From assembly GCA_963817915.1 (NCBI GenBank), contig CAWFQL010000011.1, forward strand, positions 192,001 through 256,000: a stretch of 64,000 bases of DNA, in the 5' to 3' direction. Both the position numbers and the translations under genes were made by a program. The notes under the pieces are model-generated. The model was given only the letters and a program-made list of their open reading frames with translations, was not told where the DNA came from and searched no databases. This document shows positions 7,939 through 37,339 of the stretch, piece after piece; within the stretch, counting starts at the first letter, position 1; every line of letters begins with the position of its first letter. Origin of the DNA: an uncultured candidate division Zixibacteria bacterium. Lineage in GTDB: Bacteria > Zixibacteria > MSB-5A5 > UBA10806.

Positions 7939-8071
7939 GTCTATTTAACCGTTTGCTGACAATCAATCCTGATAATGAAATTATCGGCCGATGCCGATAA
8001 TAATAATGTCGGCAGTCACGTTATTGAATCTTCTTCATTGAACTTCTCGACATGCTTAGAGGATGGATTAA

Positions 8072-26991: not shown

Positions 26992-27264
26992 AACTCTCCT
27001 GGGTTTAAGAGTTTATTAAATTTATTTTATTAGAAGATTTTAAGTCCCATTCACCAAAGCGGTTTAACACGCCATAGAAGCTTACCAAAGCAAATTATAC
27101 AATGTTATTTATTAAAATCAACCATTAATATCGGAAATATCTTCCGGGAGCCCAGAAGATTTTGCCGAAGTTTCCAAAAGAGAGCAGAGTCCAAAATTTC
27201 GAATTCAAAATATAACCCGTTAACAATCAAGCCATTGAAACATTTTTTCGCGGAAATAAAATTA

Positions 27265-27280
27265 AGGCATGGCTCTTGCT
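27265..27280 (+). promoter_or_regulatory. sigma54 promoter of motE-fliK-flgDE operon
   Basis: AGGCATGGCTCTTGCT (GG-N10-GC). Confidence 0.75.
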
Positions 27281-27300
27281 TAATACGGCTGGGGAATACT

Positions 27301-27858
27301 ATGAACTTTTTGAAGAAAATACTAATGTTAGCGGTACTGAGCGTCATCAGCTTCGTTTTGTACATATTCGTTATTGGGCTCGCAATGGGCATTCATCCGG
27401 GTCAGGCGATATCAGCAATCATTAATCCTGTCCAGCCTGATAGCCTTTCACAATTATCTGACTCCACCAAATCCGCCGCCGATAGCACTTTGGATTCAAC
27501 CGCCATCACTCCGGATTCTACGGCCAAAGTGATTATTTCGACATTAGATGATTCATTGACCCAATTGCTTTCGAGCATCAAAAGTCAGCAAACCGAAATA
27601 AGTAAAATGAAATCCGAGGCATTAAAGCGCTCGGAGGCTGATAAAACTGAAGAAGAAAATAGATTATATACACTGGCCAAAATGTATGAGGGGATTGATC
27701 CAGTCCAATTGGCCGATGTCTTCTCCAAAATGGATGATTCTTTGGTCATCCGAATTTTGCCAAAGATGAAGAGTGCGAAGGCCGGAAAAATCATCGAATC
27801 AATGCCTGCGGACAGGGCCGCCGCAATTTCAAGTAGATTGTTAGGAAAGAGCAACTAA
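27301..27858 (+). CDS. MotE/FlbB/YlxF-like flagellar protein (MgtE N-terminal-like helical domain)
   Basis: N-terminal TM; LAKMYEGIDP..LADVF..MD..ILPKMK..AGKIIESM; usual position between fliJ and fliK. Confidence 0.78.
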   Translation: MNFLKKILMLAVLSVISFVLYIFVIGLAMGIHPGQAISAIINPVQPDSLSQLSDSTKSAADSTLDSTAITPDSTAKVIISTLDDSLTQLLSSIKSQQTEISKMKSEALKRSEADKTEEENRLYTLAKMYEGIDPVQLADVFSKMDDSLVIRILPKMKSAKAGKIIESMPADRAAAISSRLLGKSN

Positions 27859-29702: not shown

Positions 29703-30431
29703 ATGCCTAATGTCGCCCCGGTAGGGGGTTTATCAACTCCAGGTCAAAACAATCAGGTTGCAGGCAAAAGCAATTTGGGCAAAGATGATTTTCTTAATTT
29801 GCTGGTGAAACAGCTGCAATATCAGGATCCGATGGAACCAATGAAGGATACTGATTTTGTGGCTCAGCTGGCAAGTTTTTCGTCGCTCGAACAGCTTTCC
29901 AATATCGGCACTTCATTGGATAACTCGACCCAGTTGAATTACATTCTGAGCCAGACAATTGCCAATACCATGGCAACTACCTTGATAGGCAAAGAGGTTG
30001 TAGCTAATGGCAATCAGATTCAACACGATTCCAATTCATCGAATCAGCTCAATTTTAATCTTGCTGATCCCGCCGCCAACGTCGAAGTCGAGGTGAAGGA
30101 TGAAAATGGGACAGTAATCCGCACCATTACCGCCAATCATCTCGCGAAGGGAAATAATTCAGTTGAATGGGACGGTCGCGATGATAACGGCGTACGGGTT
30201 GCCGCGGCAAATTATACTTTCTCGGTTTCCGCTAAAGATCAGGATGGGAAAGAAGTAAAGGCCGAAACTCGTTTGATTGGCCTGGTTGAATCTGTCAGAT
30301 ATGAAGAAGGCCAGGGATACTTGATTGTCAACGGTCAGAAGGTCTCGTTGTCGGATATTATCGAAGTCAACCTGGATAGATCATCTTCAGGCATGACCGA
30401 AAATGGCGGCAATTCGGACGGCCATAATTAA
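29703..30431 (+). CDS. flgD: Hook capping protein FlgD
   Basis: LGKDDFLNLLVKQLQYQDPMEP, WDGRDDNG; SD AGGAGG. Confidence 0.96.
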   Translation: MPNVAPVGGLSTPGQNNQVAGKSNLGKDDFLNLLVKQLQYQDPMEPMKDTDFVAQLASFSSLEQLSNIGTSLDNSTQLNYILSQTIANTMATTLIGKEVVANGNQIQHDSNSSNQLNFNLADPAANVEVEVKDENGTVIRTITANHLAKGNNSVEWDGRDDNGVRVAAANYTFSVSAKDQDGKEVKAETRLIGLVESVRYEEGQGYLIVNGQKVSLSDIIEVNLDRSSSGMTENGGNSDGHN

Positions 30432-30453: not shown

Positions 30454-30834
30454 ATGGCAATCAAAACAGTAAATAACATTCAGCCGATTCAAGGCGATGC
30501 CTCGATCTCACGCCAACCGAAAGCTGGAAATCAAATAAATTCGGATTCGAAATTCAGGAATCTCCTGGATAATTCGCTTTCGAATCTAAAATTCTCAGGT
30601 CATGCCCTCAATCGTCTTTCGGACAGGGGAGTCGTAATGACGAACGAGAAGACCGAGCGTTTGATGAAGGCGGTCGATACTGCTGAAAATAAAGGATCGA
30701 AAGATTCATTAGTATTGCTCGATGAATTGGCGTTTGTGGTTTCCGTTAAGAATCGAACGGTAATTACCGCATGCGATATGTCGGGTTTCAAAGAGGGAGT
30801 ATTTACTAAAATCGATAGTACAATATTTGGATAA
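30454..30834 (+). CDS. Flagellar operon protein, TIGR02530-like
   Basis: LKFSGHALNRLSDRG...KGSKDSLVLL..AFVVSVKNRTVITA..VFTKIDS; position between flgD and flgE. Confidence 0.85.
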   Translation: MAIKTVNNIQPIQGDASISRQPKAGNQINSDSKFRNLLDNSLSNLKFSGHALNRLSDRGVVMTNEKTERLMKAVDTAENKGSKDSLVLLDELAFVVSVKNRTVITACDMSGFKEGVFTKIDSTIFG

Positions 30835-30842
30835 TAATAAAC

Positions 30843-30916
30843 GGCTGGACCCCTTTCGGGGAGGCCATTACCCGCATCAGAATGATGCGGCTTTACGCTT
30901 GTGCGATATCAAGCGT
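30843..30916 (+). ncRNA. Candidate structured cis-RNA in the flgE leader (three hairpins)
   Basis: GGCT-GGA-CCCC-TTTC-GGGG-A-GGCC; CCGCATCA-GAA-TGATGCGG; ACGCTTG-N8-CAAGCGT; then SD GGAGGG. Confidence 0.55.
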
Positions 30917-30933
30917 TCTGGAGGGAACTTAAA

Positions 30934-33241
30934 ATGATGGCATCACTTTTCGCGGGCGTATCAGGTCTGAAAAATCACCAGGTAAGAATGAACGTGGTTG
31001 GCGACAATATCTCCAACGTCAATACAATCGGTTATAAGTCCGGTAGAGCGACATTTCAGGAAGCGCTGGTTCAGACCATGCGCGGCGCCGGTCGACCGAC
31101 GACGACATCGGGCGGTACCAATCCGTTGCAGCTGGGATTAGGCATGAGCCTTTCGACAATTGATAACTTGTTCTTGCAGGGCGGTCTGGAAACAACAGGT
31201 CAGATAACCGATTTAGCTTTGCAGGGAACCGGGTTCTTTATTCTTTCCGATGGCCAACAGCAATATTATACAAGGGCAGGAGCGTTTGGGTTCGACGCTA
31301 ACTCCAACATGGTAAATCCCAGCAATGGCTATATTCTTCAGGGAAAATTAGCTGATGTTGACGGCACTATACCTGCTAATGCGTCGGTCGGTGATATAAC
31401 TCTGCCATTCGGGCAGCAAACACCTGCACGCATGACATCGCGTGTTCAATTGGGAATGAATCTTAATGCCGCAGCCACCGATTCGACAGCATCACTGGCA
31501 TCGGCCGGCACTTCAAATATTACGACAGTCTCAGGCCAGGCCACAAACGGAGCCGGCGGACAGCACGTAATCACTATTATTGGAAATAACGCTCAATATT
31601 CTCAAGCGTCAGGCGCTCATGGTCTGGTGCTGACCGATGTTGCCGCCGCCGATGTTGGCGCGGTAGCCGGCGCGGGTGGATCAGGGACGTTGCCTGCTGA
31701 CAATTATGTTTATACCGTAGTAGCGGTCAATTCGCTTGGTCAATCGACAGGACAAGAAATAACCGTTAATGGAGTCCCAGCCAATGGCTCAGTAGCTCTA
31801 ACTATAAACTACGCGGATGCTGACGCTACATCTGTCAGAGTCTATCGCAGAACACAGGGCGGAACTTATTCGAGCACATTGGGCGGATTAGTTTATGAAA
31901 GTCCTTATACATCTCCAGGGCCTCTGGCCTGGACCGATGACGGTTCGGTATCTGGTAATGGAGCAACACCTCCAGCTGTCAATACAACTTTGGCGCTTTC
32001 CGGACAAGAAGTGCTAGGAAGTAATCTTGGAGTCACCGATCTATCCGGTTTCAGAATAGCCGCGGATAATGGTTCCTGGATTTCACTTTCACAGCTGACA
32101 TTAAGCTCTACAGTAAATGACCTTATATCGGCGATTAATTCCTCAGTACCCGGTGTAACCGCGTCTCTAGTAGGCGGACAGATCCACGTGCAGCGTGATT
32201 ACGCCGGCAGCCCGTCGGTCTATAATGTAGCGATTCAGGATACCGTAACATCAGATTTGTGTGCTAAGCTTTTTGGCGCGGCAACTTTTAATGCCAATAA
32301 CGGATCCGCTTCCACACTGGAAGCTACGGATGTGTTCACACCCACAGGAGGCGCACCGCAGCCTGCAGAAACTTTAAATCTGGTCTATAACGATATTACC
32401 GGTATAGTTACTGGAATTTCGGGATTAGGCAATGGCGGCGTGACTGTTTCTGCCGGGGCGGGCGGCCTTGTAGGCGATCCTGACGGAGCAGGTCCTTTGG
32501 GATCATCAACATTGACCATCGACACTGCCGATACTCAGCATGCCACTTCGATTACGGTATTTGATTCTCAGGGTGGCAAGCATAATATGACAATGACATT
32601 CACCAAAAGCTGGCTGCCAAACCAGTGGTTCTGGGAAGCAAATCTTGGCGCGGGCGAGATCGTCCGTTCGGGCGGTTCAGGTGTTGTCAATTTCAATGCC
32701 GATGGATCATTGAGTTCATTCGATTATAATGGTGGAGCCACTCAATTACGTGTCGATCCCGAATAACGGCGCCGCTGAAATGGCTGTTGATCTTTTCGCA
32801 GGAACCGCCAGCGGATTCGACGGATTGACAGGTTTTTCATCTGAATCTACTGCGGCCGCCAGAAGCCAGGATGGTTACGGAATGGGAATTCTTTCGAATA
32901 TCAGTATCGATCCCAGCGGAACCATTACCGGTATTTTCACCAATGGCGTCTCCCGGGTATTGGCTCAAATTTATATTGCTGAATTCAACAATACCGGCGG
33001 TCTTCTGAAAGGCGGAAAGAGCCTATTCCAGGCTTCGGCAAATTCCGGTTCAGCGATTCTTGGAGTAGCGGGCCAGACAACGTCATCGACAATAACATCC
33101 GGCGCCCTTGAAATATCCAATGTCGATTTGGCGCAGGAATTTACCAACATGATAGTTTCTCAGCGTGGCTTCCAGGCCAACGCGAGAGTCATTACGACAT
33201 CCGATGAAATGCTAAATGAATTGGTATCATTGAAGAGATAA
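30934..33241 (+). CDS. flgE: Flagellar hook protein FlgE (~768 aa, large insert), one extra base near 32760
   Basis: SLFAGVSGL..NISNVNTIGYK, YTRAGAF in ORF 30901-32766; GALEISNVDLAQEFTNMIVSQRGFQAN in ORF 32729-33241; join at GATCCC(G)AATAAC. Confidence 0.9.
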
Positions 33242-33251
33242 AATCACAAGC

Positions 33252-33275
33252 CGGAGGGGGAGCGATCCCCCTCCG
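33252..33275 (+). other. Stable GNRA-loop hairpin after the flgE stop, no U-tract
   Basis: CGGAGGGGGA-GCGA-TCCCCCTCCG. Confidence 0.65.
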
Positions 33276-33295
33276 CGTGATGAAAGCCGCAAAAA

Positions 33296-33520
33296 GTGAT
33301 CAACGTAACGCGTTTAGATAATACCCGACTGGTAATCAATTCAGAGTTGATCGAGTTCGTGGAGTCAATTCCGGAGACAATCGTCTCCTTGACCACGGGC
33401 AAAAAGATAATGGTAAAAGAAACTATCGAAGATATCATCGCTGAAGTCGTGGAATTCAAAAGGAAATGCGCGATTTTGACGATAAAGAAGGATGAAGGAG
33501 GGATAACCGACAATGCCTGA
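33296..33520 (+). CDS. flbD: FlbD (SwrD) family flagellar protein
   Basis: MINVTRL..LVINSELIEFVESIPETIVSLTTGKKIMVKE. Confidence 0.9.
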   Translation: MINVTRLDNTRLVINSELIEFVESIPETIVSLTTGKKIMVKETIEDIIAEVVEFKRKCAILTIKKDEGGITDNA

Positions 33521-34070
33521 TACCGCCACTAAGGAAAAAATTGAAGACGATGAAATGATGGAGGATGAAAAGTCGGAAGAATCTGCCAAATCGAAAAAAT
33601 CGGGTGGCATGATGCAGACGGCAATAATCATCGCCTTATTTCAAGTAGTCATTGCAGTTGGAGCATACTTTTTTATCAAAATGGCAATAGCTCCACATAT
33701 GAAAAATGTCCCCGCATCATCGGGACAGAGCCAGGCCGAAAAATCAAACGCTGAGTCTCAGGGAGCCCGCGAAGTCAAGTTGATTGAAAATATCGTAGTT
33801 AATCCGGCCGGAACGAACGGCACACGCTATTTGTCAACATCGATTGGGCTCGAACTGGATAAAACGCCGGAAGGCGAAAAGCTAATGGAAGAAAAAACGC
33901 CGGTAATCCGAGACATAATAATTGCGGTGCTAACATCGAAAACATTGGAAGAATTAAGCTCGGCTGAAGGCAAAGATAATATAAGGACCGAAATACAAAG
34001 TAAATTGAGTGAAGCCATCGCTCCTGTAAAGGTTCACCGGATTTATTTTGTGGATTACGTGCTTCAATAG
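33513..34070 (+). CDS. fliL: Basal body-associated protein FliL
   Basis: Single TM; IVVNP, PVIRD..L.SK, IYFVDYVLQ. Confidence 0.9.
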   Translation: MPDTATKEKIEDDEMMEDEKSEESAKSKKSGGMMQTAIIIALFQVVIAVGAYFFIKMAIAPHMKNVPASSGQSQAEKSNAESQGAREVKLIENIVVNPAGTNGTRYLSTSIGLELDKTPEGEKLMEEKTPVIRDIIIAVLTSKTLEELSSAEGKDNIRTEIQSKLSEAIAPVKVHRIYFVDYVLQ

Positions 34071-37155: not shown

Positions 37156-37286
37156 GGTAGATTTTTTCTCCTATCTCGGAATAATTTTCCCAGTCAATAG
37201 ATAAAACTCGTTTTCAGTCTTCGTGTTTGGCGAAGTAACTGCAAATAATATAACAGGTTAACTTTATTCTATTCCCTAATCCTTTA

Positions 37287-37302
37287 CGGCACATCGCTTG
37301 CT
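37287..37302 (+). promoter_or_regulatory. sigma54 promoter of fliR-flhB-flhA operon
   Basis: CGGCACATCGCTTGCT (GG-N10-GC). Confidence 0.75.
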
Positions 37303-37339
37303 TTAAAGCATTGACGATATGGGGAAAGAATAGGGAAAA

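Follow-up and report, generated by a model that had tools for sequence, protein, structure and literature searches.

A short RNA hairpin, hereafter hairpin 1, lies between the gene of a TIGR02530 protein and the hook protein gene flgE in flagellar operons of bacteria from many phyla. It is a real cross-phylum RNA motif, apparently uncatalogued, and has an RNase-like flagellar protein as its partner. The motif and the TIGR02530 protein probably control the supply of hook protein. Taken across the readings discussed below, it is likely that the protein reads hairpin 1; that it is a dedicated RegB-like RNase, which recognizes the hairpin and cuts out the flgE message, is our tentative proposal, to which we give slightly less than an even chance. 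The binding, the catalysis, the position of the cut, and the direction of the effect on flgE are what we infer from the comparisons presented here. The hook needs far more FlgE than FlgD or FliK, and such a system may explain how hook subunits can so greatly outnumber those of cap and ruler when all are encoded in one operon. The widespread TIGR02530 family, tabulated as function unknown (PMC13277936), thereby acquires a putative substrate, together with a candidate catalytic residue and a predicted cleavage site.

Flagellar Operon of the Window

The window, i.e., the whole 64,000-nt stretch of DNA analyzed, is part of a 3.3-Mb genome. Among named homologs, those nearest to its TIGR02530 protein bear the label Zixibacteria, which suggests this lineage for the genome. 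The gene order is flgD, the TIGR02530 gene, flgE, flbD/swrD, and fliL; the first four genes and all hairpins described below are on the + strand. The hook cap gene flgD occupies 29703..30431 (Pfam FlgD, FlgD_ig, and FlgD_tudor) and provides the upstream context. The next ORF (30454..30834, 126 aa) had been called TIGR02530-like in a sequence-only reading, and this assignment holds: the protein scores 101.6 bits against the cut-off of 83.2 and matches PF12611 (Flagellar_put, DUF3766). As a member of the family, the gene stands between flgD and flgE, the place described as usual for it (10.1101/2024.12.16.628780), with spacers of 22 nt to flgD and 99 nt to flgE. The flgE gene (30934..33241; ORFs and a profile match) starts with ATG at 30934 and is preceded by a Shine–Dalgarno (SD) sequence at 30920..30925, which is about half unpaired in the fold ensemble. 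After a gap of 54 nt, flbD/swrD (33296..33520; Pfam FlbD, 81.6 bits) follows as the downstream context, starting with GTG at 33296. The motA and motB genes sit between flbD and fliL in many Bacillota; in the window, they are absent from this interval (33521-34070).

The flgE gene of the window is frameshifted near 32759-32760 (the site lies within 32755-32766) and occupies two frames in the assembly. In all five relatives compared, flgE is unbroken (767–771 aa), and among the 14 ORFs of one relative, flgE alone maps onto the window in two frames. This is either an assembly error or a recent lesion (loss of the hook).

The sequence-only reading had also held that flgE is specially bracketed in an otherwise tightly packed operon. 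Indeed, between the gene before fliK and fliA, 10 of the 17 junctions are overlaps or spacers of no more than 2 nt; however, judged by length alone, the fliP–fliQ (67 nt) and fliQ–fliR (184 nt) spacers are long as well. The latter (37156-37339) is AT-rich and is the longest of the operon. The gene before fliK (27235-27858) carries an MgtE_N domain and shows a weak match to the collar protein FlbB (MotE-like).

Conserved Hairpin Upstream of flgE

Three consecutive leader hairpins, previously drawn at 30843-30866, 30872-30890, and 30895-30916, were reproduced by folding. The region 30835-30920 has a folding energy of -33.8 kcal/mol (z -3.16), and one of 200 shuffled sequences folded equally well. 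The three-hairpin description proved too broad for other genomes: hairpin 1 is the invariant core, whereas hairpin 2 is optional and hairpin 3 is family-specific.

Hairpin 1 (30843..30866), whose conservation is indicated by folding, a weight matrix, and covariation, consists of a lower stem, an internal loop of 5'-GGN opposite R, an upper stem, and a variable terminal loop. In the window, the internal loop is a 3x1 loop, GGA/A. The comparison set comprised the 30 best-scoring loci of the same phylum, the best 80 of 579 titled loci across GTDB, and 47 further regions (Bacilli, close relatives, and one phage record). These 157 regions, 155 of them distinct and a few still near-duplicates, carry at least 13 phylum labels as written by the submitters; cultured Paenibacillus, Cohnella, and Geomonas strains are among the titled loci. 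The hairpin was located with a two-block weight matrix that contains no pairing information, and it was found in 147 of the 155 distinct TIGR02530–flgE junctions. The other eight fell under the matrix score and were left out of the covariation count; by eye, most of them contain a recognizable variant.

By MI-APC, the six top-ranking column pairs all correspond to nested base pairs in the lower and upper stems of hairpin 1. Not one of these six values was matched in 300 null alignments simulated along the protein tree, and a slower-rate null matched them in at most 1 of 200 alignments; the null is our own tree-based simulation and differs from R-scape. In a model-fitted alignment, which is biased towards the model, paired cells make up 95% and 79 double changes can be counted, exceeding 500 shuffles and all slid controls. 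The expectation of a conserved, covarying motif at this junction was therefore borne out. Hairpin 1 has a single match in its own genome; a loose descriptor scan of that genome gave 136 mostly chance matches, and covariance models were used instead.

Neither the window nor 20 related loci matched Rfam. Two families of structured RNAs located before flagellar genes, Termite-flg (RF01729) and flg-Rhizobiales (RF01736), are similar in position (PMC2864571) and differ in consensus and host taxa. Searched at E<=10, the own genome contained no Termite-flg match, and the 20 related loci contained none at the gathering score; flg-Rhizobiales gave no covariance-model match in the window or in these loci. 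A search of full-text literature, covering mostly papers outside subscription journals and Rfam as the motif catalog, returned no paper on the motif or on the function, RNA partner, or fold of TIGR02530.

On the 5' strand, G30847, G30848, and C30850 are invariant (147/147), while the third base of the loop triplet varies (A in 115 loci, C in 17, and U in 15). A leader bound by CsrA has an invariant GGA in a terminal loop. Hairpin 1 could be such a site, given that GGA is its commonest triplet, but 32 of the 147 loci read GGC or GGU, the triplet is in an internal rather than a terminal loop, and the motif follows the presence of TIGR02530. Although CsrA does bind GGA in flagellar leaders (PMC4894983), we consider this explanation very unlikely. 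The invariant unpaired G-G suggests a specific reader.

Throughout the set, hairpin 1 is located upstream of an accessible SD sequence, which lies outside the hairpin. The distance from the hairpin to the flgE start varies from 5 to 199 nt, with a median of 60 nt where hairpin 2 is present and 30 nt where it is not. Sequestration of the SD sequence is inconsistent across loci.

Hairpins 2 and 3 and the Closing Hairpin

Hairpin 2 follows hairpin 1 at a near-fixed spacing in 87 of the 147 loci compared, with the loop pattern GA-HY-GA-YN-GA, and is absent from most of the own phylum. The window contains a shortened form (30872..30890), which is a worn copy of this optional GA-rich loop. A K-loop is a stem closed by tandem G–A steps around a short loop; the pattern of hairpin 2 presumably resembles it and fits it in 87 of the 147 loci, the window copy excepted. 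PF01248, the L7Ae family, was found in one of five (incomplete) genomes with hairpin 2 and was not found in the own genome. Bacterial homologs of this family do not bind K-loops, according to a title cited in PMC4316175. Hairpin 3 (30895..30916) has a positional counterpart of different sequence in some genomes of the same family; it is local and lies outside the wide motif.

The closing hairpin after the flgE stop codon (33252..33275) was confirmed by folding as described earlier, with 10 bp, a GNRA loop (GCGA), and no U-tract; it is a candidate 3' barrier. The region 33242-33300 has a z of -4.87. In Bacilli, the median energy of the post-flgE hairpin is -19.9 kcal/mol in 37 gene-positive loci vs. 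-16.0 in 30 gene-negative ones (p 0.004, without correction for GC or kinship). In the other loci, a hairpin at -12 or lower occurs in 71 of 78, a few ends being mis-called, and its sequence is not conserved; it is absent in three loci with gaps of 6–11 nt. One lineage has neither hairpin 2 nor the closing hairpin. The structural bracketing of flgE is therefore real in the window but dispensable, because the closing hairpin is missing in some lineages where the protein and hairpin 1 remain.

Co-Occurrence of Hairpin 1 and the TIGR02530 Gene

The TIGR02530 gene was found in 124 of 151 genomes of the own phylum, and the other 27 also have no FlgD match. In a Bacilli sample, FlgD was detected in 68 of 91 genomes and the TIGR02530 gene in 38; in a Desulfobacterota-type sample, the numbers were 32 of 61 and 2, respectively. 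The weight matrix passed 36 of 37 gene-positive junctions (training loci) and 1 of 47 gene-negative ones, the exception scoring marginally and lying within flgD. With covariance model R2, no match was obtained at any of the 30 gene-negative Bacilli junctions or at any of the 17 gene-negative Desulfobacterota-type junctions examined (of 30 loci). Whole genomes were searched with R3, a two-hairpin covariance model, at E<=0.01. It matched 39 of 40 TIGR02530-positive genomes, including 22 of the 23 outside the training set, and none of 40 flagellated TIGR02530-negative genomes (30 Bacilli and 10 of 30 Desulfobacterota-type genomes; best E 0.015). The weaker R2 matched 20 of 38 positive genomes and gave one strong match among 60 negatives, which is inside a coding sequence. 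The off-junction whole-genome matches inspected, which include part of those at E>0.03, are inside coding sequences. No copy of the motif was found before flgG in the 40 gene-positive genomes.

In four Bacilli (L156, L158, L160, and L162), the TIGR02530 gene, the motif, and flgE stay together, while the FlgD match is elsewhere. In these genomes, FlgD is best matched by a long gene that stands alone, at a great distance from the flagellar operon. On the FlgE tree, the TIGR02530 gene changes state 10 times, and strong branches compel 4 of these changes; the motif, whose absence was assigned from the junction scans, never changes opposite to the gene. A sign test is not supported, because there are only 4 independent contrasts on well-supported branches (10 on all). 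The motif was thus not found independently of the gene, a result that would have refuted the sequence-only reading, apart from one marginal matrix score among the 47 junctions lacking the gene.

One may suppose that the RNA, alone or with general host nucleases, serves as a signal for processing or stabilization and that TIGR02530 has a separate role at the protein level in hook assembly, the two being mere neighbors. Neighbors are easily lost together, and the evidence of co-loss is weakened by the fact that one deletion can remove both. Clostridial stem-loops are described as setting subunit ratios, one predicted case being flagellar (PMC8219983). However, a leader acting on its own should outlast the loss of the gene, yet the 47 gene-negative junctions have no motif apart from that marginal score; the invariant G-G and the RNase-like fold of the protein also argue against it. 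We regard this explanation as improbable. A parallel is the selective RNA processing and stabilization of the cip-cel operon of Clostridium cellulolyticum, where intergenic stem-loops possibly set subunit ratios (PMC4423207, PMC8219983); unlike them, hairpin 1 shows sequence conservation across phyla and is accompanied by its own candidate nuclease. Neither flagellar terms nor motif words occur in the supplements of PMC4423207. PMC8219983 lists a flagellar stem-loop but does not print its sequence, and that stem-loop is not tied to the hairpin 1 motif.

The gene-positive genome G277 contains a second full two-hairpin motif (L215:1014-1067 (-), G277:C24). It lies outside the flagellar operon: an EF-hand protein gene immediately precedes it, a terminator-like hairpin follows, and neither TIGR02530 nor flgE adjoins it. 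This copy is a hint of action in trans.

Several single loci deviate from the common arrangement. In L163 (G229:C1:1451606-1451875), the TIGR02530 gene has an internal stop and the motif is intact; three close relatives fall under the family cut-off. The TIGR02530 gene of L202 (G126) is also split. In the gene-negative Bacilli loci L134 and L148, the flgD–flgE gap contains a hairpin before flgE without the YGG strand; in L134, this hairpin may be what remains of hairpin 1. Locus L205 (G180:C40), from a Bacilli genome, is on a contig with a very high GC content, which is probably a contaminant. An unverified "bacteriophage" record (MT835480, L111:3175-5900) contains flgD, TIGR02530, the motif, and flgE; this stretch is probably bacterial DNA or a captured piece of the operon. 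The phage-record search returned that one unverified record and did not recover phage G, and no relative was found in IMG/VR.

Fold and Conserved Residues of the TIGR02530 Protein

The family includes 2,415 cluster representatives at E<=0.001. Its near-invariant residues are S48, H50, R54, R58, K80, T105, T118, I120, and D121; the first four are invariant in 146 of 147 alignment rows, the remaining row having a gap. H50 is the only conserved His. AlphaFold models show a helix, a short strand, two helices, three strands, a short helix, and a strand. The model mb493fba80a9c (pLDDT 83.5) contains two core helices and three strands with an N-terminal helix and a C-terminal strand; the BECR-like core covers approximately residues 31–126. 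The predicted topology agrees with the BECR layout of a pre-alpha helix, a core helix, and an antiparallel sheet, in which loss of beta1 is allowed (10.64898/2026.08.28.747851).

Similarity searches point in the same direction. DUF4258 is weakly matched by 81 of 150 members at E<=1 (best E 0.0016), with 12 for the next family. RelE/ParE/HigB chains top both PDB fold searches; the RelE/ParE scores are Z 5.0–5.8, the best match (Z 5.8) having an rmsd of 3.3 over 70 aligned residues. The T4 RegB protein (Z 5.0, rmsd 3.2, 90 of 97 residues) is the sole fold match that spans the whole domain. Among viral folds, the top match is a phage "site-specific RNA endonuclease" (E 0.0065, TM 0.57), and a DUF4258 protein ranks sixth. 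Foldseek gave no match at E<=0.001, and type III pantothenate kinases score Z 4.1–4.8 in the same fold search. A PDB sequence search returned nothing useful, and ESM Atlas contained only family-like clusters, below 0.9. A prediction of the TIGR02530–FlgE complex for one Bacilli locus scored 0.00 and says nothing either way. The RNase-like fold proposed earlier is thus supported by the topology and by matches to DUF4258, RelE, and RegB, but all scores are weak; from models and alignments, the protein looks like a BECR-fold member on weak but consistent signals.

S48, H50, R54, and R58 align with S46, H48, R52, and R56 of RegB. In a RegB profile match of 19 columns (probability 8.6%), H50 is opposite the catalytic His48. 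RegB His68 is outside the aligned columns; Leu70 and Arg69 are found at that offset, and there is no second conserved His. DUF4258 belongs to the colicin-like group of BECR RNases, whose active sites are formed by the pre-alpha helix and the terminal strand (10.64898/2026.08.28.747851), and H50, R54, R58, and T105 fall at such positions at the sequence level. DUF4258/Ntox49 and RelE/ParE of the BECR superfamily share with TIGR02530 the topology and the conserved His on the pre-alpha helix. TIGR02530 differs from these toxins in its fixed place in a flagellar operon, its scores being below significance. No flagellar family is mentioned in the main text of a 2026 survey of BECR proteins (10.64898/2026.08.28.747851).

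A type II toxin–antitoxin or polymorphic toxin system was rejected: the neighbors are flgD and flgE, and no antitoxin or immunity gene adjoins. In type III toxin–antitoxin systems, tandem RNA repeats are located upstream of the toxin gene. An arrangement of this style, in which hairpin 1 mainly inhibits a toxic RNase and ties its activity to the flgE message, would suit the toxin-like fold without an adjoining protein antitoxin gene, the obligate neighboring RNA, and the second copy elsewhere in one genome. However, the RNA is present as a single copy in almost every genome, with no repeat array, and is downstream of the TIGR02530 gene; moreover, the gene has a fixed place in a housekeeping operon, being found in 124 of 151 own-phylum genomes, while the other 27 are without FlgD. 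This reading is highly improbable.

Proposed Mechanism

Our preferred reading is that the TIGR02530 protein is an endoribonuclease of the BECR fold that has been domesticated and whose nearest counterparts are DUF4258 and phage T4 RegB. It would recognize the GGN/R internal loop and cut within it, so that the long transcript of the flagellar operon is split; the predicted cut is placed between 30848 and 30849 by analogy with RegB alone. The downstream flgE piece would gain a 5'-OH end, the leader hairpins, and, in many lineages, a 3' hairpin, and it would outlive the upstream fliK–flgD–TIGR02530 piece. FlgE would thereby be raised over FlgD and FliK, and the nuclease would limit its own synthesis.

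RegB uses the catalytic residues His48 and His68, recognizes GGA, leaves a 5'-OH, and cuts its own mRNA, whereas RNases E and G prefer a 5'-monophosphate (PMC3014915). The flgE piece may thus be protected, since a 5'-OH end of the RegB type is disfavored by RNases E and G. The two proteins are alike in the extra N-terminal helix on a RelE-like core, the S-x-H-xxx-R-xxx-R segment, the GG-centered target, and the site in their own transcript; they differ in that the second catalytic His of RegB is unmatched. In addition, RegB acts with S1 on the unstructured SD sequence GGAG/U in many phage mRNAs, whereas the candidate site of TIGR02530 is GGN-C in one structured internal loop upstream of the SD sequence of a cellular operon. 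RegB is blocked by RNA structure, depends on S1, and mostly destabilizes its targets (PMC3014915). These properties, along with the variable third loop base, weaken the analogy, and because RegB cuts more often destabilize, the sign of the effect on flgE may differ.

The strict co-occurrence, the covariation, the weakly supported RelE/RegB-like fold, the invariant polar residues, and the absence of a conserved internal promoter favor the RNase reading. It is weakened by the lack of a significant fold match, the missing counterpart of RegB His68, and the lineage without hairpin 2 and the closing hairpin. The invariant His and Arg fit pure RNA binding equally well. The protein might then bind hairpin 1 without cutting and regulate flgE translation or protection from host nucleases, as in ribosomal-protein autoregulation. 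All the co-occurrence and covariation results, the single conserved His, and the constant position of the motif upstream of an accessible SD sequence are compatible with this. On the other hand, hairpin 1 leaves the SD sequence uncovered at a distance to the start codon ranging from 5 to 199 nt, a full copy follows an unrelated gene with no flgE downstream, and the invariant residues are at colicin-like BECR active-site positions (10.64898/2026.08.28.747851). Binding alone is the main alternative and appears somewhat less likely than cutting.

If the cutting takes place, a 126-aa nuclease and a 24-nt site would form a compact RNA-processing tool. The fullest form of the RNase reading is possible but somewhat doubtful: an ancient toxin-fold RNase recruited as a flagellar housekeeping enzyme, with one structured site in its own operon, a protected 5'-OH end, control of the FlgE:FlgD:FliK ratio, self-regulation, and reach in trans to further transcripts that have acquired the site. 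If it is true, the 5'-OH end would be missed by standard 5'-end sequencing.

No conserved internal promoter was found: sigma28-, sigma54-, and sigma70-like patterns occur in 4, 2, and 3 of 141 upstream regions, compared with 4, 2, and 2 in the controls. In the window, three sigma28-like promoter matches can be noted on the + strand, at 7973, 11462, and 59468.
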